A stretch of 64,000 bases of DNA from an uncultured Mollicutes bacterium. GTDB taxonomy: Bacteria > Bacillota_I > Bacilli_A > RFN20 > CAG-826. The position numbers and the translations under genes were made by a program. Below the pieces are notes generated by a model. The model was not told where the DNA came from and ran no database searches. It saw only the letters and a list, made by a program, of their open reading frames with translations. The DNA lies in assembly GCA_900539595.1 (NCBI GenBank), contig UQCQ01000001.1, positions 80,626 to 144,625 on the forward strand, read 5' to 3'. This document shows, piece by piece, positions 3,711 through 28,771 of this stretch (its first letter is position 1; each line of letters begins with the position of its first letter).

Positions 3711-4384
3711 TAGATTCCTCCTTCGATCGCCTCGTCGATACGAGAACGATCCGCTTCATCAAAATAAGTTTCGATGGGTTTTAAGTAACCCAAGGTAATG
3801 AGTCTGCGGGCTTCTTTGGAGTCCAGCCCGCGGGACATCAAATAGAACATATGGTCTTCGTTGAGTTTGCCAACGATTGCCGCGTGAGAAGCCGACACGT
3901 CATTCTCATCGATTTTTAAAATCGGAGAGCAACGGGCCAAGCAGCGAGGATCGAAAACAATGATTTTGGCCGCTTGTCGGGTTTTGGAGGCGCGAGCTCC
4001 ATGCTGAATCTGACTAACTCCGGTAAAAACTAGATGGCTTTCATTTTCGCTGATGCCGTAATTTTCCATAACCCCCTCGGTATGTGGGGCCAAATGGAAA
4101 CAGCTGGCTTCAATCGTCTTTTTATCGCTACCTTTGGACAAAACGGCGCCATGGAATTCGCAAGACGCGCCTTCTCCTTCTAGAAATACGAAAAGACGGA
4201 ACGTACCACTTCCCTTCGAGAAGTCCGCCAAGGCACCGATAAATTTGGCGTCCTTTGCAACGTGAACTTCGATATCCGCGGAAGGGAAGGAGTCAAAACT
4301 TGCAATATTAAGACGTAGTTCTTCTCCTTCTTTCACCGAATAGGAAGCGGCTTGAATATTCTGGTTGATTAAAGTCGTTTTCAT
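3710..4384 (-). CDS. sufD: short SufD-like protein (only the C-terminal half of canonical SufD)
   Basis: 224 aa. The C-terminal [10 protein letters not shown]...EARRLI motif is shared with the SufB C-terminus. Its ATG overlaps the sufC stop. Confidence 0.7.
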   Translation of the reverse strand: MKTTLINQNIQAASYSVKEGEELRLNIASFDSFPSADIEVHVAKDAKFIGALADFSKGSGTFRLFVFLEGEGASCEFHGAVLSKGSDKKTIEASCFHLAPHTEGVMENYGISENESHLVFTGVSQIQHGARASKTRQAAKIIVFDPRCLARCSPILKIDENDVSASHAAIVGKLNEDHMFYLMSRGLDSKEARRLITLGYLKPIETYFDEADRSRIDEAIEGGI

Positions 4385-5205
4385 CAGATACCCGCTTTCT
4401 CCTTGGCGGCGCAGACGCCGATGGAAACGTTATTCATGCCTGGGTTTTCTTTTTCGATTTCAATGCCGAGTTCCCGTTTAATCCATTCATATCCTTCGCG
4501 GTCAATTCGTTCAATGAGGCTAGAATCGCCATTAACGCGAATACGACCATTGATCATGATGGCTACGCGAGTGGGGTGAATCAAATCATATAAACGGGCA
4601 TAGTGCGAGATGACCAGAAATCCACGTCCCTTAGCCTGCTCTTCTTCGATGGATTTGGCGACAATATTGATGGCATCCACGTCAAGACCCGAATCGATTT
4701 CATCTAGCAAAGCAAATTTCGGATCAAGCAATTTCATTTGGAGGATTTCGTTTCGCTTCTTTTCACCACCGCTGAACCCTTCGTTCAAATTGCGATTGCT
4801 CATTTCAAAGGGAATGCCCGTTTCCTTATAAGCCTTCTGCAGTTTGGAATAGTATTCAAAAAGCGACATCGGCTTTTGACGGCGAGCATTCATAGCCGCC
4901 TTCAAAAAGTCAGCGCTGTTTACCCCGGGAATTTCGCTGGGGTATTGGAAAGCAAGAAAAATGCCGGCTTTGGAACGTTGATCAACGCTCATTGCCAAGA
5001 CGTCTTGCCCATCCAAAGTAATGGACCCTTCCGTCACATTGTAATTGGGATTTCCCATGATCGCGGCGAGTAACGTGCTCTTGCCGTGACCATTGGGGCC
5101 AAGGAGGGCCAGGGTTTCGCCTTCATTCAATTCGAGGTCGACCCCTTTCAATATTTCATGGTCTTGAACCGATACATGTAAATTTTCAATTTTTAGTGTG
5201 GACAT
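4384..5205 (-). CDS. sufC: Fe-S assembly ATPase SufC
   Basis: Walker A GPNGHGKST and signature LSGGEKKR. The track start is an upstream TTG. The ATG at 5205 has a perfect GGAGGTG 6 nt upstream. Confidence 0.9.
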   Translation of the reverse strand: MSTLKIENLHVSVQDHEILKGVDLELNEGETLALLGPNGHGKSTLLAAIMGNPNYNVTEGSITLDGQDVLAMSVDQRSKAGIFLAFQYPSEIPGVNSADFLKAAMNARRQKPMSLFEYYSKLQKAYKETGIPFEMSNRNLNEGFSGGEKKRNEILQMKLLDPKFALLDEIDSGLDVDAINIVAKSIEEEQAKGRGFLVISHYARLYDLIHPTRVAIMINGRIRVNGDSSLIERIDREGYEWIKRELGIEIEKENPGMNNVSIGVCAAKEKAGI

Positions 5206-11127: not shown

Positions 11128-11923
11128 TCTCGTTTTCCTCCATCGTATTTTGAATGTCTTGCGATTGGTATCCTTTGCGCATCAACGCTCCAAAGATGCG
11201 TTGACGCAATTCATATCCTTCATATTTCTTCTCGTACCTCGCCCGATAGGTGAAATAATCTTTGAGAAGGGCGTTGCGTTCCGACTCTTCGTCATTGACG
11301 CTCGCGCATTCTTTTGTAGCCAGAATCGCGATATCTTCGTCAAAGCCCCGTTGAATTAAGCCCTGAATCATCTTGGTTTGTTTCTTCGCGTTAGGAGCTT
11401 TTTCGTTCCGTTTATTGAGCAACGCCGCATACCTAAGGGCTTTGTTCTTTTCGTTTTCTTCGTCGAAAACCAGTTTGGAAAGGATTTCGTCTCGAATCCC
11501 TTTTTTCTTTAATTCGTAAAGGATTCTCTTTCGGCCATAGGATTTGAAATCCGCGATATCCGAAGCATAGACTTTCGCGTACATCTCATCGTCCAATAAC
11601 CCAATTTTGATTAAGCGCGAGCAGATGGCGGATATCGTCTCTTGACTGGCTTTTTTGGACTCGAGTTTCGCGGATACTTCATGGATCGTTTTGCTGCTTC
11701 CCGAACAAAGTTTTAGGGCATAATCGTAATATTCGTCCAATTGGGCCGCCTTCTTTAATTGGGCGAATTCCTGAGAAGAAATCTCTTTTCCCTCGTAAAG
11801 GGGCTGATCTGTAAAGCTATGGAGGCCCATTTCCAGTTTGGACCCATCATTAAAAACAACAAGAACGCCTTTCTTTTTTCTTTCTATCGATGCAATAACT
11901 TTACCAGTTTTGACGGACGACAC
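11117..11923 (-). CDS. recX: recombination regulator RecX
   Basis: Repeated helical RecX modules and ~268 aa, the typical length. The likely start is GTG 11923..11921, with GGAGGTG 7 nt upstream, inside the 3' end of the GT4 gene. The track's 286-aa version starts at an upstream TTG. Confidence 0.7.
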   Translation of the reverse strand: MSSVKTGKVIASIERKKKGVLVVFNDGSKLEMGLHSFTDQPLYEGKEISSQEFAQLKKAAQLDEYYDYALKLCSGSSKTIHEVSAKLESKKASQETISAICSRLIKIGLLDDEMYAKVYASDIADFKSYGRKRILYELKKKGIRDEILSKLVFDEENEKNKALRYAALLNKRNEKAPNAKKQTKMIQGLIQRGFDEDIAILATKECASVNDEESERNALLKDYFTYRARYEKKYEGYELRQRIFGALMRKGYQSQDIQNTMEENENAD

Positions 11924-13076
11924 GACGATACACCTCCATGATGTTTTGATAGAACCGCTCCAAAGAATAGACATCAATGATTCCCAAAGCGGACTGAATG
12001 ATTTTTTCTTTGGCTTCTTCTTTTAAATTCATGACATGCTCCAAACGTTCCGGAAAATCCTTTTCGTCAAAAAAGAAGAACCCCGTGGAGCCGTCTTGAA
12101 TCGTTCCGACGAGATTATCGTCGTATCGAGCCAATACCGGCAGCGACGCTGCCATCGCCTCCATAAACGTCAATCCCTGCGTTTCGGTGACGGAAGCGGA
12201 AACGAAGCAATCTCCCAAATGATAGAATTTTTGAGTTTCGTTTGGAGATACCTTCCCCGTGAAAACCACGTTGGATTCGATTTGAAGTTCGTGAGCAAGG
12301 TCTTGTAGTTCTTTTTCAGCAGGCCCCCAGCCCGTAATGACGAATTTAGTTTTACGGGACGGAGAATTCTTAAGGAAACGGGCATAGCCACGAAGCAACA
12401 CATCGATGGATTTTTCTTTCGCTACGCGGCCCAAAGACAATACCACATATTCATCCGGCTGGATTCCGTATTTTCTTTTCAATTCTTCTGTTTCCGATTT
12501 ATTTTCGTTTTTCAAAGAGAATCGCTCAAAATCGATGCCGGTAGGGATAACGGCCACATTGGCGTCAACCCCCACCATACGAAGATAGTCGTAAGTTTTT
12601 TCGCTGGGAGAGATAATCGCACCAAAATCCCTTGTTTTTTCCCGGTAAAAAGCACGGATGCAGTGTCTAGCAACGCGGTCGAAATGCCCGTGGGTAATGT
12701 AATAGGTATAGTCCTCAATCATCGTATGGAAGGTGTAGATCTTTCCGATGTGAAGCTGATCCGCCATCATCGAGCCAAAGATGCCAACGCTGGAATCGGT
12801 TTGAACGTGAATCACGTTAGGATGAAAATCACGAATGATTTGAGCGGCCTTTCGGTTATAAGGGGTAGGGAGGCGATAATTGTAAAGACGCTTCAATTGA
12901 ATGCCCGGGACACGGACGACACCATCTTCATAGGCAAACTGGTTGCCATAGGGGTTGGTCGTGACAACCAAAACCCTCTCTCCGTGCGCCTTTAAAGTAG
13001 TAGCCAAGTTATAGGTGGAGGTGGCTACCCCATTAATTTCGGGTGGGTAGGTATCCGAGAAAAGAACGATATTCAT
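11901..13076 (-). CDS. family GT4 (GT-B) glycosyltransferase, likely a glycolipid glycosyltransferase
   Basis: N-terminus NIVLFSDTYPPEINGVATS and C-terminal GT4 signature (E...TQGLTFMEAMAASLPV). ATG 13076 with GGGAGA, 2 nt after the upstream stop (TAACGATG). Confidence 0.8.
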   Translation of the reverse strand: MNIVLFSDTYPPEINGVATSTYNLATTLKAHGERVLVVTTNPYGNQFAYEDGVVRVPGIQLKRLYNYRLPTPYNRKAAQIIRDFHPNVIHVQTDSSVGIFGSMMADQLHIGKIYTFHTMIEDYTYYITHGHFDRVARHCIRAFYREKTRDFGAIISPSEKTYDYLRMVGVDANVAVIPTGIDFERFSLKNENKSETEELKRKYGIQPDEYVVLSLGRVAKEKSIDVLLRGYARFLKNSPSRKTKFVITGWGPAEKELQDLAHELQIESNVVFTGKVSPNETQKFYHLGDCFVSASVTETQGLTFMEAMAASLPVLARYDDNLVGTIQDGSTGFFFFDEKDFPERLEHVMNLKEEAKEKIIQSALGIIDVYSLERFYQNIMEVYRRVVRQNW

Positions 13077-13078
13077 CG

Positions 13079-14614
13079 TTAAATCTCCCAGTTGGACCAT
13101 CCGGATTCTTCGCTTTGGTCCTTCTTTTTCTTCTCTTTTTTCCGCTTAACCTTTTTGGGTTTTTCTTCTTGGATGGGGAGGGGGCTGGTCTCCGTATTGC
13201 GGCGGCGGCTTCTCCGCTGTTCTTTTTCCGGTTCTTGGCCGACTTTCATGTAGGTGGAAGATAAGTCGGTGGTATGGGAATTGATGGGGTCTTGCGTGGT
13301 CAAAGCTTCTGCCTCTTCCTCGCTCTTTTTGCGGAACGTGGCCGTTAAGCGGCGTTGCATTTCCTTGCGAGAGAATTGGCTGGTCTCATACATGGTGTCC
13401 GCGGAACGCTTACGTTCATCAAAGGTCTCAAGTTGCAAAGTGACATAGGTTTTTCGGGAAGCAAATTCGGGGGCAGCCCCGCCACGAGAATGATAGAAGG
13501 CGCTGACGACCCCCGAAATCAATAAAACGATATGGAAGGTTGCGCTACGCCAAAGGATCTGGGTGGCCGAAATAACACCTTGGCTGGAACCAAAGAAATT
13601 GGTGAAGATGGCGTTATAGAAGATTTCAGCAACACCAGCACTTCCCGGAAGAGGAATCAAACCTGTGACCATTTGGTGGAAGGCCATGAGGAAGGAGGCG
13701 CGGACCATGGAATTCCCATAGTTTTTCAAAGAGACAAAAACAAAATGCGTGTCCTCTCCCCACGCATGCATCGCAAGGCCACAGAAATAAGGCACGGAGA
13801 AACGGAAGAAAATGAGGATAAGGAACAAAGTGAAGAGGAGAATCAAAACAGGGATATTGGACTGCAAACGGCGCAACTCGATTTTGAAGTTTTCAACCTG
13901 AACGCGTAAAGATTCGCGGGTTTTATCAGGGTGCTTCAAAAGATGGATTTTTCCTAAAAAGCCAATGACGTAATGCAAAATGAAATTGTGGAGACGGTGA
14001 CTATAACTCATGACGAACAGAATGAGGATAACGGACAAATTGATGACGAAGCCGATAATAATGAGCGGCCACATCGGAACGGTAAAAGAATAGTCGAATA
14101 ACGTAATGACGGGATTAATGCCAATCATGGTGTTCCACTCAAAGATAAGGGCCACCCCACCAAAAATAATCAACGCGGATTGGTACAAAATGAAGAACAT
14201 GACCATGATGGAAGCGCCATTAGAAACCAAGATTCCCTGGCTCTTCATCGTATAGACCTGCATGACCTGTCCCCCACTCGACCCCGGGGTGACGTCACTA
14301 TAGAATTGGCCAACAAGGGCGCAGGCTAAACCCTGGTGAAAACGATATTTTCGTGTATAGAGCCGGCAGAAGATAACCAGGATCAAAGCTTCAATGCAAT
14401 AAGTGAGGGCAACGACGCCAAACGTAAGCAAAACATAACGCCAGTCTGATTGGCTAAAGGCCGTCATGGCATCGTTAAAATTATCGCCCCAAAGCGAAAT
14501 GACCAAAGAAATCGCGGTGGCAACGAGAACGACGACGATGTAGATGAGATATTTGAACCGCTGAGACTTTTTCTTAGGTGGCTCTTGGTTGGTATTCATT
14601 TGATATTCGGCCAT
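13079..14614 (-). CDS. integral membrane protein of the UPF0104 / LPG-synthase transmembrane (flippase-like) family with a poly-Lys/Glu C-terminal tail
   Basis: About 8 TM helices. Family-like stretch QVYTMKSQGI...; the C-terminus reads KPKKVKRKKEKKKKDQSEESG. Confidence 0.7.
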   Translation of the reverse strand: MAEYQMNTNQEPPKKKSQRFKYLIYIVVVLVATAISLVISLWGDNFNDAMTAFSQSDWRYVLLTFGVVALTYCIEALILVIFCRLYTRKYRFHQGLACALVGQFYSDVTPGSSGGQVMQVYTMKSQGILVSNGASIMVMFFILYQSALIIFGGVALIFEWNTMIGINPVITLFDYSFTVPMWPLIIIGFVINLSVILILFVMSYSHRLHNFILHYVIGFLGKIHLLKHPDKTRESLRVQVENFKIELRRLQSNIPVLILLFTLFLILIFFRFSVPYFCGLAMHAWGEDTHFVFVSLKNYGNSMVRASFLMAFHQMVTGLIPLPGSAGVAEIFYNAIFTNFFGSSQGVISATQILWRSATFHIVLLISGVVSAFYHSRGGAAPEFASRKTYVTLQLETFDERKRSADTMYETSQFSRKEMQRRLTATFRKKSEEEAEALTTQDPINSHTTDLSSTYMKVGQEPEKEQRRSRRRNTETSPLPIQEEKPKKVKRKKEKKKKDQSEESGWSNWEI

Positions 14615-16463: not shown

Positions 16464-16482
16464 TTCGCATCTCTAACATAAA

Positions 16483-16506
16483 AACGGCAGGGGGCCTGCC
16501 GTTTTC
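16483..16506. terminator. bidirectional rho-independent terminator between degV and pflB
   Basis: AAACGGCAGG ggg CCTGCCGTTT, flanked by an A-run and a T-run. Confidence 0.7.
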
Positions 16507-16521: not shown

Positions 16522-18774
16522 TTAGAGCGATTCGTGCGCGTGACGAGCGATAACGTCTAGTTGCTGTTCTTTCGTCAAATCGATGAACTTAACCGCATAA
16601 CCAGAGACGCGGATCGTGAAATTCGCATATTCGGGTTTTTCCGGGTGCTCCATCGCGTCTTTAAGCTTATCGATGCCGAAGACGTTGACGTTAAGGTGAT
16701 GGGCGCCTTTATCAAAGTAGCCATCGAGAATACAGACGAGGTTTTTCACTCGTTCCGCATCCGTTTTCCCAAGAGTATTCGGAGCAATCGTCTGGGTGTT
16801 GGAAATGCCATCTAACGCATATTCATACGGAAGTTTTGCTACCGAATTGAGGGAAGCGAGCAAGCCGTTTTTCTCCGCTCCATAGGCAGGGTTAGCACCC
16901 GGGGAGAGCGGTTCTCCCGCTTTGCGGCCGTCCGGCATCGAACCCGTGGCTTTGCCATAAACGACATTGGAAGTAATCGTGAGGATCGAGGTCGTGGGCT
17001 CGGAATCGCGGTAGGTGTGGTGCTTCTTGATCTTCTTCATGAAGGTTTTCAGCAACCAAACGGCGATGTCGTCCGCGCGATCATCGTCATTGCCATAACG
17101 GGGGAAGTCGCCTTCGATTTCATAATCCACGACTAGACCCGTTTCGTCACGGATGGTCTTGACTTTGGCGTAGCGAATCGCGGAAAGGCTATCGACAACA
17201 TGGGAGAATCCCGCGATCCCTGTAGCAAACGTGCGGCGAACATCCGTATCGATGAGGGCCATTTCGGCGGCTTCGTAATAATAACGGTCATGCATATATT
17301 GGATGAGGTTCAAGACATTCACATAAATGCCCGCGAGCCATTCCATCATGTCGTCATAGCGTGCCATGACTTCGTCGTAATCCAAATATTCGGAAGTAAT
17401 CGGGCGGTAACGTGGACCCACTTGATCGTGCGTTTTTTCGTCAACGCCGCCGTTAATCGCGTAAAGCAAGCACTTAGCCAAGTTCGCGCGGGCGCCGAAG
17501 AATTGCATTTCTTTGCCGGTTTCGGTTGCAGAGACGCAGCAGCAAATCGAATAGTCGTCTCCCCAAATTGGGCGCATCACATCATCGTTTTCATATTGGA
17601 TGGAGCTGGTTTTCACCGAAATATTCGCCGCATAGGACTTAAATCCTGCAGGAAGGCGCTTCGAATACAAAACCGTGAGGTTGGGTTCGGGAGCAGGGCC
17701 CATGTTCTCTAGGGTGTGAAGGAAACGGAAATCGCTTTTGGTCACTAGGCTGCGGCCATCTTGCCCCATACCGCCAACTTCCAGGGTCGCCCAAACGGGG
17801 TCACCAGAGAAAAGTTGATTGTAGGAAGGGATGCGGGCGAATTTGACCATGCGGAGTTTCATGACGAGGTGATCGATGAGCTCTTGGGCTTCCGTTTCAG
17901 TAAGGATGCCTTTGCGTAAATCGCGTTCGATATAAATATCCAGGAACGTGGAGATACGGCCTACAGACATGGCAGCGCCATTTTGCGTGCGGATGGCGGC
18001 AAGGTAACCAAAATAGAGCCATTGCACCGCTTCTTTGGCGTCTTTGGCCGGTTGAGAAATATCAAAACCAAACGAGGCAGCCATTTGTTTCATTTCGCGG
18101 AGCGCCTTCATCTGATCCGCGATTTCTTCGCGCAGGCGGATGACATCTTCCGTCATCGTGCCATCGCCGCATTCGGCGAGATCTTCTTCTTTTTTCGCTA
18201 GCAAAAAATCGATGCCATAAAGGGCAACGCGGCGATAATCGCCAACGATTCTGCCGCGGCCATAGGCATCGGGAAGACCCGTTAAGATTTTGTTGTGACG
18301 GACTAATTTCATCTCCGGGGTATAGACATCAAAGACCGCTTGGTTATGGGTTTTGTGATAATCCGTGAAGATTTTGTGGAGTTCAGGGTTGGGGGTATAG
18401 CCATAGGTTTGGCAGGCTTTTTCCGCCATCTTGATGCCACCATAAGGCATGAAGGCGCGCTTTAAAGGCTTATCGGTTTGCAAGCCGACCACCTTTTCCA
18501 ATTCTTTCGTTTTATCGCCAATATAAGCGGGACCGTAGGCGTTAATGGAGGAAACCACCTCGGTTTCCATATCCAAAACACCGCCTTTGGCACGTTCTTG
18601 ATGCTGAAGATCCTGCACCATGTTCCAAAGCGTTTCGGTTGCGTCGGTCGGCCCTTCCAAAAAGGAAGCGTCTCCTTGATATTCCGTATAGTTTCGTTGA
18701 ATGAAGTCACGAACGTTGACGTCTTCATTCCAATGTCCGGGGGCAAAGCCCTCCCATTGTAATTTCTGTTCCAT
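16522..18774 (-). CDS. pflB: formate C-acetyltransferase (pyruvate formate-lyase)
   Basis: 751 aa from ATG 18774, which has AAAGGAGGG 6 nt upstream. Glycyl-radical C-terminal region RVSGYAV. The track adds 23 codons from an upstream TTG. Confidence 0.9.
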
Positions 18775-18829
18775 GTTATCCCTCCTTTGGGGGCATGCAA
18801 TATTTTGAGAGTTTAGAGGAAGCGTTTCT

Positions 18830-18843
18830 TTGATTTCAATCAA
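18830..18843 (-). promoter_or_regulatory. FNR/CRP-family box TTGATTTCAATCAA upstream of pflB
   Basis: Perfect TTGAT-N4-ATCAA, centred ~62 nt upstream of the pflB ATG, between pflA and pflB. Confidence 0.65.
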
Positions 18844-18850
18844 TTTCGCT

Positions 18851-19576
18851 TCATTTTTTTACAAGAATGTTTTCCGCGTTTTTTACCCGTTCATTCGAGG
18901 GGGGTTCTACTTTTCCAAGCAAATAATCCAAATGAAGCTCTTTCCATTTGAATTCCCCCATTTTATGGAAGGGGAGCACTTCCACCCGTTCCACGTTATG
19001 GAGGTTATCGATGAAACGACGGGTTGCATTCAAATCCTCGTCGAAATCCGTGTATCCCGGCACTAAGACATGGCGAATCCACACGGGCTTATGGATTTCA
19101 TCCAAATAACGAAGCATATCAAGAATATTTTCATTGCTTTTGCCCGTTAGAACACGATGCTTTTTGCTATCGATTTCTTTGATATCGACAAGCAACAAGT
19201 CCGTTACCTTCATAAGGCCTTGGAAGCGGGGGAAGAATGGCTCTTCTCTTGTAAATGGGGATCCCGAAGTATCGATGCAGGTGGATATCCCTTTTTCTTT
19301 GGCTTTCGTAAATAGTTCCGTCAAGAATTCGATTTGAAGCAAGGGTTCTCCTCCACTGACGGTGATGCCGCCTTCTTCGCCCCAATAAGATCGATAACGT
19401 AACGCTTGTTCCAGAATAGAATCCGCTGAGCGGAGTTCTCCACCAGGAGTAGCCCACGTATCGGGGTTATGGCAATAAAGACAACGCAAAGGACAGCCTT
19501 TCAAAAAGATAACAAAACGGATTCCCGGGCCATCCAGGGATCCAAACGTTTCGATCGAATGAATGTTTCCTTGCAT
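18851..19576 (-). CDS. pflA: pyruvate formate-lyase activating enzyme (radical SAM)
   Basis: [11 protein letters not shown] radical-SAM motif. RBS GAGAGGA. Confidence 0.9.
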
Positions 19577-19591
19577 CTAAAATCCTCTCAG

Positions 19592-19645
19592 CACGCTTAT
19601 TATCTTTTTAAAATATCGAAACTTCCTTGATTTCAATCAAGAATT
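19592..19645 (-). promoter_or_regulatory. class II FNR-type promoter of pflA: FNR box TTGATTTCAATCAA (19627..19640) centred about -41.5 from a GATAAT -10 (19604..19599)
   Basis: Box and spacing read directly. The box is identical to the one upstream of pflB. It overlaps the stop codon of the fnr-like gene. Confidence 0.6.
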
Positions 19646-20332
19646 GACAATTTCTACCAACGCATCGAAATCGCAGATTCGAAAAGCAGAACGTCCCTTC
19701 TTTTCCAAGACACCATCTTGCAGCAATTCGCTGATTTTTCGAGATACCGTCTCGGGGCGAAGGGATACCGCCGAAGCAATATCGCTTAATTTCATCGAGA
19801 AGGTATCACGGTGAAACTGCGAAGCGCGATAAGCAAATAGTCGAGCGATTTTGGCTTTGGGGTCTGTGGTAGACAGAATCATATTTCGTTCATTCGCATC
19901 GTGAAGTTTTTTCGAAAGGATCTCGATCACGGACAAAGCGCCGCGCCCATCCTTTAGATGATTCCGGACGATGGAGACGGGAACTTTGCAGACCACCACT
20001 TCATCCATGGCAATGCCATGGAAGGGGAAAGTGGGTTGTTCAAGAAATAAACCCTCCCAAATCCATTCTTCCTTACCGAAAAACGCAACAATCTTTTCTC
20101 TGCCGTCCGAATCGTAATTTACAAGTTTGATGTTCCCTTTATGAATCAAGTAAAGGGAGTCGGCAGGATCGCCAAGAGAAAAAATCGAATCGCCTTTTTG
20201 GTAAGTCGACTGAATCGCCGAAGTAAAAAGCAAATCCTTTTTCCCTTGCTTCTTGTCGTCCTCAAAAAGCCACGCGGATACACATGGAGAGGGGCATTGT
20301 TGGCATGGCGTCTTGGTTTTCATAAATAACAT
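19637..20332 (-). CDS. fnr: Crp/Fnr-family transcriptional regulator with an N-terminal Cys cluster (FNR-like O2 sensor)
   Basis: cNMP-binding fold plus C-terminal HTH (RPETVSRKISELL). N-terminal CQQCPSPC plus a further Cys. The start is ambiguous: ATG 20332 or 20323, or the track's TTG at 20392. Confidence 0.75.
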   Translation of the reverse strand: MLFMKTKTPCQQCPSPCVSAWLFEDDKKQGKKDLLFTSAIQSTYQKGDSIFSLGDPADSLYLIHKGNIKLVNYDSDGREKIVAFFGKEEWIWEGLFLEQPTFPFHGIAMDEVVVCKVPVSIVRNHLKDGRGALSVIEILSKKLHDANERNMILSTTDPKAKIARLFAYRASQFHRDTFSMKLSDIASAVSLRPETVSRKISELLQDGVLEKKGRSAFRICDFDALVEIVNS

Positions 20333-20566
20333 TGTCGAACGTTTCAATATCGACTCTAGCAAGATACATGGAAGAAAGAAGAAATCAAGCAAAATACCCC
20401 AAAGCCTCTTTGCCTATTTCTCGGGCTTTTTTACCTCTTTATAGGACGTTGTCAAAACTTTGGTCCTCTCTTGTTGCAACATTCTCTCACACGCCTAAAA
20501 TGAGAAATCATCAGCAGTGAAAGAGAAGGGTGCTTGTCTTTCTCTAGCGTCTTGAGGAGTATCGGT

Positions 20567-22882
20567 ATGACAGTTATTTACGACGAAAGTCTCGATGGGA
20601 ACTTAGATATTGAGGAACCAAAAATCTGCGTCATGAAGCGTTCGGGCGAACGAACGAGTTTTGATCGCATGAAAATCGTGGAAGCTATCCGCGGGGCCAA
20701 CGAAGAAGAAGGCATCGTTTCTGAGCGTTTAACCGAAGAACAAATCAATGGAATCGCTTATGGCATTATGAAGGATGCCATGAATGCGGGACGCGATTTG
20801 TCCGTGGAAGAAATCCAGGACAAAGTCGAGGATGCTTTGATGGGCACCGGCAAATACAAGGTTGCCCGTCTTTATATCACCTATCGTTATAAGCACGGCG
20901 AAAACCGAAAAATGAGCGATATCGACCAGAAAATCGCTGGTGTTGTCGAACGCTCTAACGAAGAAGTCAAACAAGAAAACTCCAACAAGAATCCGACGAT
21001 TCTCTCCGTTCAACGCGACTATATGGCCGGGGAATGGAGCCGTTATTATACGAGCCGTTATTTGCTTAGCGACGACATCGTCCAAGCTCACCGCGAGGGC
21101 ATCATCCACTTCCACGACGCCGACTATTTTGCCCAGCACGAGCACAACTGCGACCTCGTTAACCTCGAGGATATGCTTCAAAACGGAACCTGCATTTCGG
21201 GCACTCATATCGATACCCCGCATAGTTTCTCCGTCGCTTGCACCGTTGCCAGCCAAATTGTAGCCCAAGTCGCTTCGAGCCAATATGGTGGACAAACGAT
21301 CACCATGAGTCACTTGGCTCCGTTTGTCGACGTTTCGCGCAAGAGAATTGCCAAACGTTTAAAAGCAGAATTTGAATCCGCTGGCATCGAAACTTCCAGC
21401 GATAAGTTCAATCACTTGGTCGAGCAAGAAGTCCGCAAGGAAATCGAAACGGGCTGCCAAACCATCCAATATCAGTTGATCACGTTGCAATCCACCAACG
21501 GCCAAGCTCCTTTCGTGACCGTCTTCCTCTATCTCCACGAAGTTCCGGAAGGCCGCACTCGGGATGACCTCGCCCTCATTATCGAAGTCATGCTCAAGCA
21601 ACGCATTCTTGGAGTCAAAGACCGCACCGGGCAATATATCACCCCGGCTTTCCCCAAACTCATCTACGTCCTTCAAGACGACAACATCGACGAAGGAACC
21701 CCCTATTTCTATTTGACCAAATTGGCCGCGGAATGCACGGCCAAGCGCATGGTCCCCGACTACATCTCCGAAAAGAAGATGTTCGAATTAAAGGGTGATT
21801 GCTACCCCTGCATGGGTTGCCGTTCCTTCTTAACTCCGGACCGCTTCACCGATGCGGGCATTGGTAACATTGCCAACGCTTTGGATTATGTTCCCGGTAA
21901 GCACCGCTACTACGGCCGTTTCAATCAAGGCGTCGTCACCATTAACCTTGTCGATGTGGCTTGCTCTAGTGGCAAAGACGAAGAACGCTTCTGGGAGATC
22001 TTCCGCGATCGTTTGGAACTTTGCCACCGCGCCTTGCAACTTCGCCACAAGCGCTTGCTCGGCACTCCAAGCGACGTGGCTCCGATTCTTTGGCAGGATG
22101 GAGCTTTGGCTCGCCTAAAGCCAGGAGAAACCATTGATAAGCTTCTCTTCAATGGCTATTCCACGATTTCTTTGGGTTATGCCGGACTCGCCGAATGTGT
22201 CTATTACATGAAAGGCGTTTCCCACACTTCGGGAGCAGGGGAAGAGTTTGGCATTCGCGTCATGAAGCTTCTCAATGATTCCTGCGCTAAATGGAAGAGA
22301 GAAGAAAACATCGACTACTCCGTCTATGGCACTCCTCTTGAGTCCACGACCTACAAATTCGCCAAGTGTCTCCAAAAGCGTTTCGGCATCATCCCCGGAG
22401 TTACCGACCATAACTACATCACCAATTCCTATCACGTCAACGTCCGGGAAAAGATCAACGCCTTCGATAAATTGACCAAGGAAGCCCAATTCCAACAGCT
22501 TTCTCCAGGTGGAGCCGTGAGCTATGTTGAGGTCCCGAACATGCAGAATAACATCCCTGCGGTTCTTGCGATCATGAAACATATCTACAACACGATCGTC
22601 TACGCGGAGCTCAACTCCAAAAGCGACCTTTGCGAGAATTGCGGCTATACCGGCGAAATCAAAATCGTCAAAGACGAAACCGGCAAACTCGTTTGGGAAT
22701 GCCCCAATTGCGGCAACCGCGACCAAAGCAAGATGCATGTTGCCCGTAGAACCTGCGGGTATATCGGCACCCAGTTCTGGAATCAGGGCCGCACGCAGGA
22801 AATCCAAGACCGCGTCCTGCATCTAAGCTTAGGAACCTTGGACGAAGAAGCCGAGAAGAAAAAAACGGAAGAAAATAAATAA
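20567..22882 (+). CDS. nrdD: anaerobic ribonucleoside-triphosphate reductase (class III)
   Basis: ATP-cone N-terminus, C-terminal CxxC pairs and glycyl-radical RRTCGYIG. ATG 20567 with RBS GAGGAG. The track start is an upstream TTG. Confidence 0.9.
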   Translation: MTVIYDESLDGNLDIEEPKICVMKRSGERTSFDRMKIVEAIRGANEEEGIVSERLTEEQINGIAYGIMKDAMNAGRDLSVEEIQDKVEDALMGTGKYKVARLYITYRYKHGENRKMSDIDQKIAGVVERSNEEVKQENSNKNPTILSVQRDYMAGEWSRYYTSRYLLSDDIVQAHREGIIHFHDADYFAQHEHNCDLVNLEDMLQNGTCISGTHIDTPHSFSVACTVASQIVAQVASSQYGGQTITMSHLAPFVDVSRKRIAKRLKAEFESAGIETSSDKFNHLVEQEVRKEIETGCQTIQYQLITLQSTNGQAPFVTVFLYLHEVPEGRTRDDLALIIEVMLKQRILGVKDRTGQYITPAFPKLIYVLQDDNIDEGTPYFYLTKLAAECTAKRMVPDYISEKKMFELKGDCYPCMGCRSFLTPDRFTDAGIGNIANALDYVPGKHRYYGRFNQGVVTINLVDVACSSGKDEERFWEIFRDRLELCHRALQLRHKRLLGTPSDVAPILWQDGALARLKPGETIDKLLFNGYSTISLGYAGLAECVYYMKGVSHTSGAGEEFGIRVMKLLNDSCAKWKREENIDYSVYGTPLESTTYKFAKCLQKRFGIIPGVTDHNYITNSYHVNVREKINAFDKLTKEAQFQQLSPGGAVSYVEVPNMQNNIPAVLAIMKHIYNTIVYAELNSKSDLCENCGYTGEIKIVKDETGKLVWECPNCGNRDQSKMHVARRTCGYIGTQFWNQGRTQEIQDRVLHLSLGTLDEEAEKKKTEENK

Positions 22883-22887: not shown

Positions 22888-22917
22888 AAAGCCACAGGGA
22901 TTCCTTGTGGCTTTTCG
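22888..22917 (+). terminator. hairpin between nrdD and nrdG (AAAGCCACA...TGTGGCTTTT); an attenuator or partial terminator
   Basis: 9-bp stem plus a T-run. The nrdG RBS AGGAGG follows immediately. Confidence 0.4.
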
Positions 22918-22931
22918 ATAGGAGGACAAAG

Positions 22932-23468
22932 ATGCATTACGGACAAATCATGATCGCCGATAGCGCGAACGGAGCAGGGATTCGCCTCACCCTATTTGTT
23001 TCGGGATGCACGAATCATTGCCCCGGGTGTTTTCAGCCAGAAACTTGGGACTTCTCTTTTGGAGAGCCTTATACCCAAGAGGTGGAAGACAAAATCCTCG
23101 ACGAACTTCAAAAACCCTACTACGACGGATTGACGATTTTAGGAGGCGAACCTTTTGAAATCGAAAATCAACCCGCCCTTCTTCCCCTAATTAAGCGCGT
23201 TCACGAAATGAATCCGAAACGAACTATTTGGATGTATACCGGGTTCCATTACGAAGACCTTTTGCCGGGCGGAAAACGCTACACGCCCTTCACGGATTCC
23301 ATTTTGGATAAGATTGATATCCTCGTGGATGGGCCCTTTCAAGAAGAAAACAAAAACATCTCTTTGAATTTCCGCGGATCCACCAACCAACGAATCATTG
23401 ATATCCCCCAAACAAGAAAAGCGGGGCGCATCGTCTTATCCCCGCTTCAAGAAAGTTCTCTTCTTTAA
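22932..23468 (+). CDS. nrdG: anaerobic RNR activating protein (radical SAM)
   Basis: CTNHCPGC motif. ATG 22932 with AGGAGG. The track start is an upstream GTG. Confidence 0.85.
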   Translation: MHYGQIMIADSANGAGIRLTLFVSGCTNHCPGCFQPETWDFSFGEPYTQEVEDKILDELQKPYYDGLTILGGEPFEIENQPALLPLIKRVHEMNPKRTIWMYTGFHYEDLLPGGKRYTPFTDSILDKIDILVDGPFQEENKNISLNFRGSTNQRIIDIPQTRKAGRIVLSPLQESSLL

Positions 23469-26083
23469 TCGTCTTTTTCACTCCAACCAATCTTCTCGGC
23501 GAATTGGTTATTCACCGCGATTTTTAGTTGATAACGATCTTCTTCTAGCTCACTAGCAGGAGAGAGGAAGACCAAAGCCCCATTTTTCTCTTGGCTTGCC
23601 CGGTGGGCGGGCATCACTTTATAAGTGAGCCTTCCTTTTTGTTTCATCGAATAATCCTTGTCGAGGAAGGAAGAACGCTCTAATACGGCAAGCAATTGGT
23701 AACGAGGGGAATCCCCTTCCGCGCGATATAAGGCAAAAGGCCCTTCCCCTTGCCAAGATAGATGCACGCCATCCATCGCATAGGAAGCTTGGAAGTACTG
23801 AATAGGAGTAAAGACTTCGGGAGGAACAAACCCTTTTATCACATAGGTATGCCCTGGAATGGTGGGGAAAGAAACTTCCGTCCCTTCGACGTTGGCGTAC
23901 GCCCCTTCTTCGCTTTCCACTTGAATCGCGGGGGTAATCCCCTCATAACGAATCCGTGCTTCTTGCCCTTTCAAAGAGAGAAGACGAACTTCTTGAATCA
24001 CCCCGCCTTCATAACGGCAGGAAATCTCGAAATTGCCACGGGCTTTTAATCCGCGGAAGGATACCTTTTTCCAAGAAGAAGGCAAGGCAGGTAGCAAAGA
24101 AATATATCCTTCATGACTTTGAAGGAGCATCTCCGCAATCCCAGCCGTCGCCCCAAAATTTCCATCGATTTGGAAAGGCGGATGGACGTCCCAAAGGTTC
24201 GGATGGGTCTTCTTTTCTAGGAGCATTCTTAATAAACGATAGCAATGGTCTCCATCCCCAACGCGAGCCCAGCAGCAAAGGCGATGCGCCAAAGCCCAGC
24301 CGGTGGAGAAATCCCCGCGAAGTTCCAAGGTGCGTTTCGCCGCGTCTAACCACGCAGGAGTTTGATGGGTGATTAAGCTTCCCGGCATTAAACCAACGAG
24401 CTGAGAAAGATGACGGTGATGATATTCGCCGATTTCCCCGTAGAAATGCTCTTCTTGGTATTCTTTGATTTGCCCGCTGTAGCCAATTTGGACGGGGTCG
24501 TAATGGTTGGCTTGAAGACATTCTAATTTTGTGGTGTCGTCTTCTTTTCCTAAAACCGCGGCGATACGTAGGTCATTTAAAGCATTATCCTGCATCATTT
24601 GCTCGTCAAAAGCGCAGCCAACCGTGTGATAATATTGCTGAGCAGGGTCGCTTAATACCCAGTGTCCACCTAAAAGCTGCTCCGGGGAAGCCGAATACGA
24701 GCAAAGATATTTATCGTCGTATTTTTTGACGCAGCGGACAAAGAATTTCGCCATGCCGTGAACGGCGGGTTCGACGTATTGGGATGCAAAATCCTGATCT
24801 AAGGTAAAGGCATAGGCATCATAGAACAAACGACTGGTCATTCCTCCGGTTCCAGGACCCGAATGAGTTTGATGACGCATGCCCTCAATTTCGTAGGCAA
24901 AAGCACCTGTTCCGATGATCCAACCGCATTTCCCTTCCCCCGCTTCATAGGAGGCGGGATTTTCTTCCTGAACCCATTTCGACGCGCTGGTTTGCGCATA
25001 AGGCAAATAGGCCAAGAAGAAATCTGCATAGGCATCAAAAGTTTCACCAAGATTCGTGACAAAAGCCGGCCAGTAATTCATCTGGATATTGATGTTATGC
25101 CAGAATCCGCTCCCCCACGGGGATTTATCATGAGCCGTCCATACTCCTTGCAAGGAAGCGGGCAAACTGCCTTTTCGAGAAGAAGAAACCAAAAGGTGAC
25201 GGCCGTATTGGAAATAAAGTTCTTCTAAATAGGGAATGGATTCCCCTTGACGGCAGCTTTCTAATAATTCATCCGTATAACGAACGTCTTCTTTTCCTCC
25301 AAGATCCAAGTCTACGCGACCCATCAAGGAGACATAATCTTGGAGATGACGTTCTCTTAACTCGGCATAGCCAAGTTCCATCGCGTTTTGAAGACGTTTC
25401 GCAACATCTTCATGAGGATCTTTTCCTTCCGCCTTATGGCTGAAGAAAGTCTCAGGGCAAAGCGAATAAGAAGTTCCTGCGGCATAGAAAATCGATACAC
25501 GGGTCGCTCCTTTGATGCAAAAAGCCGCTTCTTTTTGTTCCACGGCTCCATTAGAAACTACTCCCAACCTTCCTTCATAAATCAGGTTTTTAGCAGGATG
25601 GGTTCCTCGCATCACAAGAACATTTTGATCAAAATAGACCTTTCCTTCTCTTCCGCCATCTTCGATGCTGCGTTTTCCCAAATAGGAGATGACAAGGCCA
25701 ATCTTCAAATCAACGGGCTGATTCGCTTCGATGGAATAAGCGAAACAATGATCGGGGTAGGAGCAAAAGCATTCCCTTTGGATGCGATTGCTTCCATCAA
25801 AAAAGGAAGAGGAGGCACATCCGGTTTGAAGAGACAAGGAACGGACGTAGTCCGTGATGCTATTTTGGGGTTGATAGGCAATATGGATCTCCGAAAAGGA
25901 GGAAACACCCCCATGCGGATAGTCGTTTGCATATTCATTCGTGGTGAATTGGATTTCCTCGTCTTCAATCCCGCCAAACACGCTTGCCCCGAAATACCCA
26001 TTTCCAATGGGAAGAGAATATTTCTCCCATCCTTCGATGTTCATGGGCGCAGGTTGCCCGTAACGTAATTCTAATTTCTTCAT
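23465..26083 (-). CDS. GH95-family glycoside hydrolase (alpha-L-fucosidase-like), cytoplasmic
   Basis: 872 aa with a GH95-type N-terminal beta-sandwich and (alpha/alpha)6 region. No signal peptide. Confidence 0.75.
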   Translation of the reverse strand: MKKLELRYGQPAPMNIEGWEKYSLPIGNGYFGASVFGGIEDEEIQFTTNEYANDYPHGGVSSFSEIHIAYQPQNSITDYVRSLSLQTGCASSSFFDGSNRIQRECFCSYPDHCFAYSIEANQPVDLKIGLVISYLGKRSIEDGGREGKVYFDQNVLVMRGTHPAKNLIYEGRLGVVSNGAVEQKEAAFCIKGATRVSIFYAAGTSYSLCPETFFSHKAEGKDPHEDVAKRLQNAMELGYAELRERHLQDYVSLMGRVDLDLGGKEDVRYTDELLESCRQGESIPYLEELYFQYGRHLLVSSSRKGSLPASLQGVWTAHDKSPWGSGFWHNINIQMNYWPAFVTNLGETFDAYADFFLAYLPYAQTSASKWVQEENPASYEAGEGKCGWIIGTGAFAYEIEGMRHQTHSGPGTGGMTSRLFYDAYAFTLDQDFASQYVEPAVHGMAKFFVRCVKKYDDKYLCSYSASPEQLLGGHWVLSDPAQQYYHTVGCAFDEQMMQDNALNDLRIAAVLGKEDDTTKLECLQANHYDPVQIGYSGQIKEYQEEHFYGEIGEYHHRHLSQLVGLMPGSLITHQTPAWLDAAKRTLELRGDFSTGWALAHRLCCWARVGDGDHCYRLLRMLLEKKTHPNLWDVHPPFQIDGNFGATAGIAEMLLQSHEGYISLLPALPSSWKKVSFRGLKARGNFEISCRYEGGVIQEVRLLSLKGQEARIRYEGITPAIQVESEEGAYANVEGTEVSFPTIPGHTYVIKGFVPPEVFTPIQYFQASYAMDGVHLSWQGEGPFALYRAEGDSPRYQLLAVLERSSFLDKDYSMKQKGRLTYKVMPAHRASQEKNGALVFLSPASELEEDRYQLKIAVNNQFAEKIGWSEKDD

Positions 26084-26096: not shown

Positions 26097-27713
26097 TTAG
26101 ATTTCGCTTGTAGAAATCGACCAACGGTAATTATTCACGCGCAATCCTTCTGGACGGTAAGAAGGAAGCTGCTTCGCTTCCAGTTCTTCAATCGAATCGA
26201 TTTCTCCCTTTAAATAAGCGTTTAATCGGCGTTTTGCATAGGCCATGCGTTCTTTTAATCCACCGAGTCGTGCACATTGGATTTCGTAGCCAAAGGCTTT
26301 GTTTTCTTTGAGCCACATTTTTTCAAACGCGTCTTGGAAAACATTCAAGGATTCCACGATGGCATCGCATTCGTCGCAAAGGAATCTAAGCTCCTTCTTA
26401 TCTTGGGCAAAATAAGCTTCATGGGCCTTGATTCCCCAATAGGCTTTATGTTCTAAAACCCCACACAAAGAAGCGACCATATCAAAGACGTAACGGTAAG
26501 GTTCATTCCGTTTTCCCGCTTCCTCAATTTCTATTTTCATCGCCTTAAAATCCATGGGATCCAATTCTTTGAAGTCCAAGTCATAGACGCCCATCAAGGG
26601 ATCGGAATAAAGCAGGCATTTGGATAAGCTATTGGCCCCGCCAAGCAGCTCGCCTTTTAGGGTTCCTAAATTTGGTTTATCTAAAAGCAGGAAATCTTCA
26701 AAAGACAATCCAAGGACATCCTTCATTTTTTTCGCGATGTCTGAAACATTCTCGTTCCCTTTGGCAAACTCGGAAGCCGCGAAAATAACGGGCAAGGCTT
26801 CATAAAGGGAGCATTCTTTTCCGTTATCTCCCCAGAGGGTAAGCAGGTAATGCTCCACATGATTTTTTCTCATGCTTTGGAAAGAAGCTTTCAATAGACC
26901 GAGCGAATAGGCATTCTGCGGGCAGAATCCGCGCCAGGTATATCCGGCGCCAGCGAACCAAACGGGATGATGGAATTCGCCATAGAATTCAAACATGCGG
27001 TCATAGAAGTGGGGATCTTCATGCCCGTAGTCCCAATAGGCGAGGCTGACGTTAGAAGGAATCCGATTCACCACCTCTTCGGGAGCGTGGAAATTTTCAA
27101 TGTCGATTTCATCCAAATAATGGCCATTATTAGACAAACGAACGAACATATCGCCCCACATATGGCAGTCAAAATCATATTTTTTGGCTATTTTAGCCAC
27201 GCGTTCCAAATGGCGGGCGATGATTTCGCCTTGCTTTTCGTAACCATATTCCCGGAGATGCTTCCCATATCCAAGGTTATAGGCTTCATCCATTCCAATG
27301 TTGAGATTTTTCGAAGTAAAGCAAGCCCGGACATTGGCGATTAAGCGTTCAATGAAATCGTATACCTCCGGCTTATCCACGTTGAGGATATCGTCGATAT
27401 CAAGCAGTTTTTGGAAGCAGCCAAGTTTCGCTGGATTCGTGAAATGCGCCAGGGTTTGGATGCAGGGAATAAGTTCTACTCCTTTGGAAGCGCAATAACG
27501 GTCCAATTTTTGGATTTCCTCCTTGGAATAGGCCCCGCGAAGATATCCAAAATAGGGCTCCCCATCGATTTCATAAATATCTTCGCTATAAAGTTCTAAC
27601 GTGTCGTAGCCCATCTTGGCAATCAAATCCACGAAGCGAATCAATTCGTCGTGATTTAAAACCCCATTACGGGAAACATCGACCATAACACCGAAATGCT
27701 GATATCCTTGCAT
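26097..27713 (-). CDS. GH20-like beta-N-acetylhexosaminidase/lacto-N-biosidase-like TIM-barrel hydrolase, cytoplasmic
   Basis: GH20 catalytic-domain pattern (VMVDVSRNG...LELYSED...IPCIQTLAHF...NIGMDEA). ATG 27713 with AGAGGA. Confidence 0.7.
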   Translation of the reverse strand: MQGYQHFGVMVDVSRNGVLNHDELIRFVDLIAKMGYDTLELYSEDIYEIDGEPYFGYLRGAYSKEEIQKLDRYCASKGVELIPCIQTLAHFTNPAKLGCFQKLLDIDDILNVDKPEVYDFIERLIANVRACFTSKNLNIGMDEAYNLGYGKHLREYGYEKQGEIIARHLERVAKIAKKYDFDCHMWGDMFVRLSNNGHYLDEIDIENFHAPEEVVNRIPSNVSLAYWDYGHEDPHFYDRMFEFYGEFHHPVWFAGAGYTWRGFCPQNAYSLGLLKASFQSMRKNHVEHYLLTLWGDNGKECSLYEALPVIFAASEFAKGNENVSDIAKKMKDVLGLSFEDFLLLDKPNLGTLKGELLGGANSLSKCLLYSDPLMGVYDLDFKELDPMDFKAMKIEIEEAGKRNEPYRYVFDMVASLCGVLEHKAYWGIKAHEAYFAQDKKELRFLCDECDAIVESLNVFQDAFEKMWLKENKAFGYEIQCARLGGLKERMAYAKRRLNAYLKGEIDSIEELEAKQLPSYRPEGLRVNNYRWSISTSEI

Positions 27714-27880
27714 ACAAAATCCTCTGTTAGCTTGATTGTACATGGAATTCTATCAATCGTTTCTTCCTATTTTCACCATGAGTAAAAAACATGAAAAACT
27801 TGTACAAAAAACAAACCAGCAAAACCATAGTTTTATTAGATTCCATAGGCCAAAACTCCTCTTTATGCCATAATGAACAC

Positions 27881-28771
27881 ATGAATTTTACTTTAGAAAA
27901 TAACGTTTTACGGATCGGGGTCACTTCTTTTGGAGGAAACCTTACCTCCGTTTTTGATAAAACCCGGAACGAAGAACTCTTCTATCAGCCTCTTCTAGAA
28001 TCTTGGCAACGTCAGGACCATTTCCTCTTCCCCTTCACGGGAAGAATGGTCGATGGGAATTACCTTTATCGCGGCAAAACCTATACCATGCCGATGCATG
28101 GCTTGTTATTAAACCAAGAAGGGCGAGGAAGAAAAGGATCCGATACCACCATCGAAATCGTTTTTGCCTCTAACGAAGAAACGTTAATCCATTACCCCTT
28201 CCCCTTCGAAGCAAAAGCCACATTCTCTCTTTTGCCCCACGGGGTTCAAGTTGCTTATGAAATCCAAAATAAGGGGGACAGTACCCTAATATTCGGACTT
28301 GGCGGCCACCCCGCATTCCGCGTCCCTTATCAAAAAGAACCAAATGGAATTCTAGAAACATCCGGGAACATCCTTCTTCTTCCACCCTGCAAAGAAGAAA
28401 TCAAAATGACGGAATTATTGCCGGGAGGATTCGTCAGCAATCGTCTTCTAAAAGTCCCCGGGCTTCAAAATAACGTTATTGATTTATCCTCTGATTTCTT
28501 CCAAAAAGTAGACACGGCAATTCTTGACTCAAGGAACTTTGAAGAGGTCGTTTTAAATAAGAAAGACGGATCCAAAATTCGTTTCCACTTAGGGTCTGCT
28601 CCCCATCTATGTTTGTGGCGGAATTTAAAAGGGGATTTCGTCGCCATCGAGCCCTGGTTATCTACTCCTGATGTTTTGCCTCTAGAAAAGGATTTGGAGA
28701 AAAAGAAAAACCTCCTCCATTTAGAGGCGGGGAAAACATTCGTCTACTCCTATTCCTTTGATATTGAATAG
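27881..28771 (+). CDS. aldose 1-epimerase (galactose mutarotase)-family protein
   Basis: N-terminus MNFTLENNVLRIGVTSFGGNLTSVF is typical of mutarotases. An alternative upstream ATG is at 27791. Confidence 0.65.
   Translation: MNFTLENNVLRIGVTSFGGNLTSVFDKTRNEELFYQPLLESWQRQDHFLFPFTGRMVDGNYLYRGKTYTMPMHGLLLNQEGRGRKGSDTTIEIVFASNEETLIHYPFPFEAKATFSLLPHGVQVAYEIQNKGDSTLIFGLGGHPAFRVPYQKEPNGILETSGNILLLPPCKEEIKMTELLPGGFVSNRLLKVPGLQNNVIDLSSDFFQKVDTAILDSRNFEEVVLNKKDGSKIRFHLGSAPHLCLWRNLKGDFVAIEPWLSTPDVLPLEKDLEKKKNLLHLEAGKTFVYSYSFDIE

Follow-up and report, generated by a model that had tools for sequence, protein, structure and literature searches.

Is pyruvate formate-lyase in little-studied anaerobic Firmicutes switched on by its own, locally encoded Crp/Fnr-family member, and if so, what does that protein sense? 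The question is raised by a stretch of 64,000 nucleotides from an uncultured Mollicutes bacterium (assembly GCA_900539595.1, contig UQCQ01000001.1, positions 80,626 to 144,625), referred to below as the window, in which a Crp/Fnr-family gene is followed by pflA and pflB and each of the two pfl genes is preceded by the same palindromic 14-mer. A preliminary description of this DNA read the 14-mers as FNR boxes that drive the two genes separately within a compact anaerobic regulon. Our analysis supports in silico the core of that interpretation, namely an FNR-type regulator with boxes at the class II distance, and sequence comparison indicates that the arrangement of regulator and boxes is real and is conserved in dozens of anaerobic Firmicutes.

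Two identical boxes in the regulator-pflA-pflB cluster

On the minus strand the regulator gene (20323-19637) comes first, followed by pflA (19576-18851) and pflB (18774-16522). Together with the two boxes and a hairpin the three genes are described as follows.

19637-20323, minus strand: gene of the Crp/Fnr-family regulator, 228 aa, ATG at 20323, stop at 19639-19637, alternative ATG at 20332
19627-19640, minus strand: box 1, TTGATTGAAATCAA, centre 19633.5, with the TGA stop of the regulator gene (19639-19637) inside it
18851-19576, minus strand: pflA, pyruvate formate-lyase activating enzyme, 241 aa, with the radical-SAM (S-adenosylmethionine) motif CPLRCLYC (CxxxCxxC)
18830-18843, minus strand: box 2, TTGATTGAAATCAA, centre 18836.5, beginning 7 nt past the pflA stop (18853-18851)
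16522-18774, minus strand: pflB, pyruvate formate-lyase, 750 aa, with the glycyl-radical motif RVSGYAV and an active-site Cys-Cys-Cys run
16481-16505, no strand assigned: hairpin of 11 pairs between the convergent pflB and degV

PflA matches the NCBIfam model TIGR02493 with 302 bits (cut-off 232) and PflB matches TIGR01255 with 1164 bits (cut-off 994). The homologues of the regulator start at the MKT/MET position.

The 14-mer TTGATTTCAATCAA, which reads TTGATTGAAATCAA on the minus (coding) strand at both boxes, occurs only twice in the window, at 18830-18843 and 19627-19640. Only 0.01 copies are expected, so that chance can be excluded, and none of 100 dinucleotide-preserving shuffles gave two. 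The same two sites are the only perfect matches to TTGAT-N4-ATCAA in the 64 kb, with 0.18 expected and two reached in 2 of 100 shuffles. Looser versions are not enriched in the window: we found 57 degenerate copies with at most two mismatches against 52 expected, and 58 copies of the 6-2-6 form of the box with at most three mismatches against 63.6 expected. Hence the signal lies in the two perfect sites rather than in a general abundance of such sequences. All positional statements of the preliminary description proved correct, including the double occurrence of the 14-mer and the overlap of one copy with the stop codon of the fnr-like gene, whose TGA (19639-19637) falls within 19627-19640. 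The centre of box 2 lies 62.5 nt from the pflB ATG (18774).

The claim that pflA and pflB are driven separately stands in one part only: a box and a phased -10 precede each gene, but no terminator separates the genes. A terminator scan between the regulator gene, pflA and pflB found none, and nothing comparable to the hairpin at 16481-16505, which is likely a bidirectional terminator closing the unit. Strictly separate transcription units were rejected on this ground, and the two regulator-dependent promoters are probably nested within a single transcription unit. An Rfam scan of the whole window returned zero RNA elements, and a riboswitch or leader explanation was therefore dropped.

Promoter geometry

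A predicted -10 element stands at the same distance from each box.

19599-19604, minus strand: predicted -10 of the pflA promoter, GATAAT, first base 29.5 nt from the centre of box 1
18802-18807, minus strand: predicted -10 of the internal pflB promoter, CAAAAT, 29.5 nt from the centre of box 2

When GATAAT is taken as positions -12 to -7, box 1 is placed at -41.5. The predicted pflA transcription start then falls at about 19592, ahead of the ribosome-binding site (RBS) GAGAGGA at 19589-19583 and the ATG at 19576, and the position of GATAAT is invariant in the related loci L004, L006, L008, L010 and L014 with a diverged spacer. At the internal promoter the predicted start at about 18795 precedes the RBS AAAGGAGGG at 18788-18780, and T/CAAAAT is kept 28.5-29.5 nt from the box centre in relatives.

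We anchored 72 unique promoter regions of related loci on the box centre. TANNNT starts 29.5 nt away in 35 of them and 28.5 nt away in 14 (49/72 together), against 0-8 regions at each other offset between 12.5 and 47.5 nt, and the looser NANNNT is found 28.5-30.5 nt from the centre in 70 of the 72. An extended -10 TG occurs in 24 regions. In the box-anchored consensus an arm of the box stands where a -35 would be, and there is no conserved -35 element apart from it. Judged from these predicted promoters, both boxes have the class II layout (-41.5/-40.5) found at FNR- and CRP-activated promoters. The -41.5 spacing of the preliminary description is thus borne out in silico, and for both boxes, since the predicted -10 lies 29.5 nt from either centre.

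A consensus promoter scan also returned a sigma-70-like pair at box 2, TTGAAA-18-TAAACT (18839-18810), which overlaps the box. We set it aside as the promoter at this place, because TAAACT is conserved solely in near-identical genomes and the hexamer at 29.5 nt more widely.

Conservation of the arrangement in Bacillota

The comparative set comprises 81 non-duplicate loci with a homologue of the regulator, and pfl linkage was defined as a distance within 6 kb. In 57 of the 81 loci pflA and/or pflB lie that close to the homologue. These loci represent several orders of Bacillota, with Bacilli metagenome-assembled genomes (MAGs), Erysipelotrichaceae, Lachnospiraceae, Ruminococcus, Selenomonas and Acidaminococcus among them. 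The closest regulators come from MAGs of uncultured human-gut 'Bacilli bacterium' (L004-L006, 93-95% identity) and the next-closest from L001 and L003 (56%), followed at 36-50% identity by regulators of Erysipelotrichaceae, Lachnospiraceae/Butyrivibrio, Ruminococcus, Eubacterium, Selenomonas and Acidaminococcus.

Conservation in related genomes was named in the preliminary description as decisive for the boxes, and we observed that the boxes and the phased -10 are kept where the regulators are 36-56% identical. L001 and L003 show little intergenic likeness to the window, yet they have a perfect box on the regulator stop codon and a second one at the end of pflA, with central bases that vary (TTCA, TTAA, TATA). 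A perfect counterpart of box 1 is found at the same place in L001, L003, L004-L006, L008-L010, L012, L014 and L015; the overlap of stop codon and box is itself conserved in relatives, and a perfect box between pflA and pflB is found in many diverse loci. All perfect boxes but one in the pfl-linked loci fit TTGATT-NN-AATCAA, with variable centres and divergent flanks; only in this genus do the two copies agree at all 14 positions, the central bases among them.

Most pfl-linked loci have a perfect or one-mismatch box before pflA, pflB or both. Both genes are preceded by a box in the Bacilli/Erysipelotrichaceae clade and several Clostridia, only pflB in Butyrivibrio and only pflA in some Ruminococcus. 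When the regulator-pflA intergenic regions are aligned, the invariant positions are mainly those of the box, the -10, the RBS and the ATG, and between pflA and pflB the box is the main invariant block. The order of pflA before pflB had been called atypical, but it is the rule in the regulator-linked clusters: 46 loci have it (31 as regulator-pflA-pflB and 15 as pflA-pflB-regulator), against three with pflB first. An Acidaminococcus MAG (L080, 7505-7534) has two perfect boxes, TTGATTATAATCAA and TTGATTGGAATCAA, 16 nt apart between pflA and pflB.

The regulator and its cysteines

The regulator begins with MKTKTPCQQCPSPC and has the domains cNMP_binding (PF00027, 59 bits) and HTH_Crp_2 (PF13545, 40 bits). 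Its cysteines are arranged as Cys7-x2-Cys10-x3-Cys14, Cys112 and a single C-terminal C217, and the recognition helix reads R-P-E191-T-V-S194-R195 (RPETVSRK). In an exhaustive homologue search E <= 1e-30 was reached by 17 representatives at 50% identity and E <= 1e-10 by 216, by which the regulator is a member of a narrow, separate subfamily. No other Crp/Fnr paralogue is encoded within the 64-kb window.

The best sequence matches in the PDB are the entries of Aliivibrio fischeri FNR (E 2e-13 to 2e-12), and this alignment places the central Cys of the regulator opposite the one that FNR has in ...SMVCEIP.... Against the E. coli FNR sequence, taken from NC_000913.3, the identity is about 24-27%, and C7, C10 and C112 form invariant columns with C20, C23 and C122. 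The N-terminal cluster had been described as reminiscent of the [4Fe-4S] ligands of FNR, and this pairing of C7/C10 with Cys20/Cys23 and of C112 with Cys122 bears the resemblance out. The third N-terminal Cys, C14, lies 3 residues past the second, versus 5 in FNR. E191, S194 and R195 do not vary and correspond to E209, S212 and R213 of FNR (ETVSR vs ETISR); the motif E-x-x-S-R marks DNA recognition of the FNR type (PMC3590769). In the activating-region-3 loop of FNR, G85 and E87 are matched by G74 and E76, the aligned loop being invariant, and an acidic residue in the dimerisation helix aligns with FNR D154. An AlphaFold2 (AF2) model of the regulator has a mean pLDDT (predicted local distance difference test) of 81, and its top 11 Foldseek matches in the PDB are all A. 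fischeri FNR (template modelling score, TM, 0.73-0.84), with CRPs next.

We surveyed the cysteines in 82 distinct homologues, i.e. those of the 81 loci and the one in the window. The spacing C-x2-C-x3-C is found in 51 of the 58 homologues with an N-terminal motif, and homologues with the motif tend to have the central Cys as well (55/3/12/12, Fisher p = 9e-6, uncorrected for phylogeny). Several homologues that look like exceptions carry variant motifs, e.g. C-x3-C-x2-C. This reverse of the usual spacing is seen in some Erysipelotrichaceae homologues, L020 (CQGNCAKC) and L035 (CQGRCLSC), with the central Cys kept.

A clade of homologues, L008-L017 and L022, lacks the N-terminal Cys motif and has Gly or Ser in the column of the central Cys; where pfl adjoins these regulators, pflA and pflB keep their perfect boxes. 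Some of these loci show boxes at further genes. In L009, L011 and L013 a box is also found before a uridine-kinase-like gene, which in L009 is the first of three genes in a row, the last being the regulator gene. L009 has in addition a perfect box (3323-3336) that abuts a TATAAT, with a gene for a cyclophilin-type peptidyl-prolyl isomerase downstream, and this geometry, unlike that of the pfl promoters, may mean repression.

The regulator homologue lies away from pfl in 24 of the 81 loci, and TTGATT-NN-AATCAA boxes are found before other genes there. As read from the sequence, the gene behind the box encodes a SufC-like ATPase of Fe-S assembly in L054 (box 2102, open reading frame 2194-2919), L075 (6688, 6725-7501) and L082 (3757, 3842-4576), and a RIC/ScdA-like protein of iron-centre repair in L032 (1015, 1103-1963). 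This suggests that the paralogous regulons are centred on Fe-S homeostasis.

Proposed mechanism and alternative explanations

From the sequences, their conservation, the promoter geometry and the residue equivalences we infer DNA binding, activation, cluster binding and a signal as follows. The 228-aa protein would be a local FNR-type activator dedicated to pyruvate formate-lyase. Its dimer would bind TTGATT-NN-AATCAA at two places, each centred some 41.5 bp upstream of a transcription start, and in this class II setting would bring RNA polymerase to promoters with a -10 and no -35. The internal promoter may serve to lift pflB, which encodes an abundant enzyme, above pflA, which encodes a catalytic activase. 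An FNR-like Fe-S cluster is most likely held by Cys7, Cys10, Cys14 and Cys112, and only with this cluster intact, under anoxic and Fe-S-replete conditions, would the genes be turned on for the glycyl-radical enzyme, which is sensitive to oxygen, and for its Fe-S activase. That the regulator binds both boxes and activates the pflA and pflB promoters appears to us quite probable on the strength of these comparisons; for oxygen as its signal we see the chances as evenly balanced.

Several observations weigh against this proposal. The best NCBIfam match of the regulator is Fnr (NF008365) with only 44.3 bits at a cut-off of 228, nearly equalled by CRP (42.6 bits) and FixK (40.1 bits), and for this reason the protein is outside the curated Fnr family. 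Its cysteines are spaced C-x2-C-x3-C and not C-x2-C-x5-C as in FNR, and the N-terminal 30 residues of the model have pLDDT below 50, which makes it uninformative on the closeness of the four cysteines. Homologues without these cysteines (L008-L015) still have perfect boxes at pflA and pflB, from which it follows that the regulatory link can do without an Fe-S signal. Oxygen sensing is of less obvious use to the hosts, which are probably strict anaerobes. A second regulator of the same specificity may be encoded in the genome beyond the 64-kb window. Finally, TTGAAA-18-TAAACT overlaps box 2, and binding there would repress if this pair were the real promoter.

That overlap is one of three observations in favour of the boxes being operators, at which the protein would repress pflA and pflB or stop transcription that reads through from its own gene. 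The other two are the position of box 1 on the regulator stop codon, where a bound dimer could stop read-through, and the box inside the promoter spacer at the cyclophilin gene of L009. We consider repression very unlikely, given that the -10 is phased 28.5-29.5 nt from the box in 49/72 promoters with no separate -35, which is the signature of class II activation, that the TAAACT at box 2 is unconserved beyond near-identical genomes, and that the loop aligned with activating region 3 of FNR is invariant. Equally improbable in our view is that the boxes are read by another, global Crp/Fnr regulator encoded elsewhere, with the adjacent gene a bystander or a regulator of other targets. Only 64 kb of the genome are in view, several Crp/Fnr paralogues are common in Bacillota and 24/81 homologues are not beside pfl; but the synteny of regulator, pfl and boxes extends across several orders at 36-56% identity, the half-site is just the one predicted from the ETVSR helix, the overlap of stop codon and box is conserved, and the window holds no second paralogue. 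As for the two 14-mers being a product of chance or local duplication with no regulatory meaning, their likeness down to the central bases would fit, yet the flanks of the two copies differ, 0.01 copies are expected and the two boxes of relatives share their arms and differ in the central bases. The conservation data refute this explanation, to which we assign practically no probability.

The nature of the signal leaves more room. With the same wiring, the cysteines could sense a cue other than oxygen, i.e. nitric oxide (NO), Fe-S or iron status, or a thiol-disulfide change as in FLP. This would agree with the boxes of paralogues before SufC-like (L054, L075, L082) and RIC/ScdA-like (L032) genes, with a Cys spacing unlike that of FNR, with hosts that are gut and rumen anaerobes, and with the sensing of NO by related Crp/Fnr regulators of anaerobes (HcpR: PMC1274295, PMC12915319); the Cys-less L008-L015, which keep both boxes, would point to Fe-S status or NO sensing or to constitutive activity in some lineages. 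On the other hand the regulator has four cysteines at FNR-equivalent positions, versus two in FLP, pyruvate formate-lyase is a classic oxygen-sensitive enzyme for which gating by oxygen is physiologically sensible, and the HcpR branches bind other motifs and are reported to be without the FNR-type Cys motif (PMC1274295). Taken as a whole, we hold a cue other than oxygen to be rather unlikely. Somewhat better, though still doubtful, are the prospects of a more specific proposal: an undescribed narrow subfamily, 'PflR', of Fe-S-type Crp/Fnr proteins in strictly anaerobic gut and rumen Bacillota, whose signal would be the integrity or availability of Fe-S clusters and not oxygen as a respiratory cue. 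Its members would be wired locally to Fe-S-dependent or -repairing genes, pflA-pflB here and suf and ric in the paralogues, such that the cell makes the glycyl-radical enzyme and the radical-SAM activase only while it is able to assemble clusters and maintain them, and the derived clade that lost the cysteines would act independently of a signal or respond to another one.

Other genes in the window

The nrdDG genes had been included in the proposed compact regulon, and they lie on the other side of the regulator.

20567-22882, plus strand: nrdD, NF006732 878 bits, diverging from the regulator
22905-23468, plus strand: nrdG, TIGR02491 166 bits

The 243-bp intergenic region between the regulator and nrdD (20324-20566) has no box, the best match there having 5 mismatches in the 12 specified bases. 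The adjacency of nrdDG is also confined to the near-identical L004-L006 (93-95% identical), L001 and L003 having other neighbours. With no candidate site and no enrichment of degenerate sites in the window, we rejected nrdDG as a member of the regulon, and this part of the preliminary description is not upheld. The mechanically called nrdD frame starts with TTG at 20534; the match to the family model begins at residue 31, and an ATG at 20567 is preceded by the RBS GAGGAG. The true nrdD start is probably 20567.

The remaining genes that we looked at are unrelated to the finding. On the minus strand, 23465-26083 encodes a protein of the alpha-fucosidase type (glycoside hydrolase family GH95) and 26097-27743 one of the hexosaminidase type (GH20), neither with an NCBIfam match, and an aldose 1-epimerase gene (27791-28771) adjoins them. 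The GH95 and GH20 genes fit a gut organism that degrades host glycans. At 11901-14614 (minus strand) an MprF-like membrane protein with the domain LPG_synthase_TM is encoded, adjoining a gene for a family 4 glycosyltransferase (GT4) and upstream of nadE and degV; the LPG_synthase_TM and GT4 genes are ordinary envelope genes, unrelated to the boxes and the regulator.

Novelty and significance

Our literature search, with RegPrecise outside its scope, found no description of a pfl-linked Crp/Fnr regulator with N-terminal cysteines in Clostridia, Bacilli or Bacillota, and no published account of pfl control in these uncultured or little-studied lineages. Two family-wide surveys are likewise without mention of such a Bacillota regulator (PMC3590769, PMC12531629).

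Pyruvate formate-lyase is one of the main ways in which Firmicutes of the gut and the rumen turn pyruvate into acetyl-CoA and formate, and the formate feeds acetogens and methanogens. The regulator-operator pair, with its sharp consensus TTGATT-NN-AATCAA and its fixed class II geometry from Bacilli MAGs to Butyrivibrio, Ruminococcus and Selenomonas, could be used for better regulon annotation in metagenome-assembled genomes of the gut and the rumen. It would also place a predicted FNR-type sensor with N-terminal cysteines in Bacillota alongside the Bacillus Fnr with its C-terminal ones, and the natural Cys-less variants could help to dissect the contribution of the cluster. The gain is one of breadth and not of principle, and it will not surprise a specialist on FNR or pyruvate formate-lyase.

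Comparison with known systems

Among the Gram-positive members of the family, FLP works through a disulfide switch made by its two cysteines, holds no Fe-S cluster and targets arginine deiminase or metal-related operons. FLP of Lactobacillus casei and Lactococcus lactis and FlpS of Streptococcus suis (PMC5039431) share with the regulator of the window the Gram-positive host, N-terminal and central cysteines and FNR-like sites. The window protein differs in having four conserved candidate ligand cysteines, three N-terminal and one central, and in having pfl as its predicted target. FLP was ruled out as its identity by these four conserved cysteines versus two.

HcpR and HcpR2 are local Crp/Fnr regulators of strict anaerobes, encoded beside the redox-stress genes that they activate (PMC1274295, PMC12915319), and in this they resemble the regulator described here, which is also encoded beside its predicted targets. 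HcpR controls hcp/frdX through the motif GTAAC-N4-GTTAC or a TTGAC-type motif and is reported to lack the FNR-type Cys motif (PMC1274295). The gene in the window, by contrast, has pflA, pflB and nrdDG as its neighbours and no hcp, goes with TTGATT-NN-AATCAA and encodes the Cys motif, and on neighbours, box motif and Cys motif the identification as HcpR or HcpR2 was discarded.

Fnr of Bacillus subtilis and Bacillus cereus is, as predicted for the window protein, an anaerobic activator of the Crp/Fnr family in Bacillota, and it binds one [4Fe-4S] cluster. The cluster of Bacillus Fnr is ligated by three C-terminal cysteines and an aspartate, and the site is TGTGA-N6-TCACA. In the window protein the Cys motif is N-terminal and C217 is the only C-terminal Cys, and the box that goes with it is of the FNR and not the CRP type; a Bacillus-type Fnr was thus ruled out by the one C-terminal Cys and the TTGAT-type sites.

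The closest likeness is to FNR itself. In E. coli, the control of pfl by FNR at TTGAT-N4-ATCAA is textbook knowledge, focA-pflB being followed downstream by pflA and controlled from multiple promoters through FNR and ArcA. With FNR of E. coli and A. fischeri the regulator shares the two-domain Crp/Fnr fold (beta-roll, dimerisation helix and C-terminal helix-turn-helix), the positions of C20, C23 and C122 together with a third N-terminal Cys, and the E-x-x-S-R helix. Its promoters share with the E. coli FNR class II promoters (focA-pflB) a TTGAT-N4-ATCAA site at about -41.5 from the predicted starts, A/T-rich flanks and pfl as the target. The differences from E. coli are the C-x2-C-x3-C spacing, the tighter 6-2-6 palindrome, the gene order regulator-pflA-pflB versus focA-pflB with pflA downstream, and a role that would be local rather than global. 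By these comparisons the protein is a so far uncharacterised local activator of the FNR type, whose predicted mechanism is conventional, as that of E. coli FNR, with nothing new in principle.

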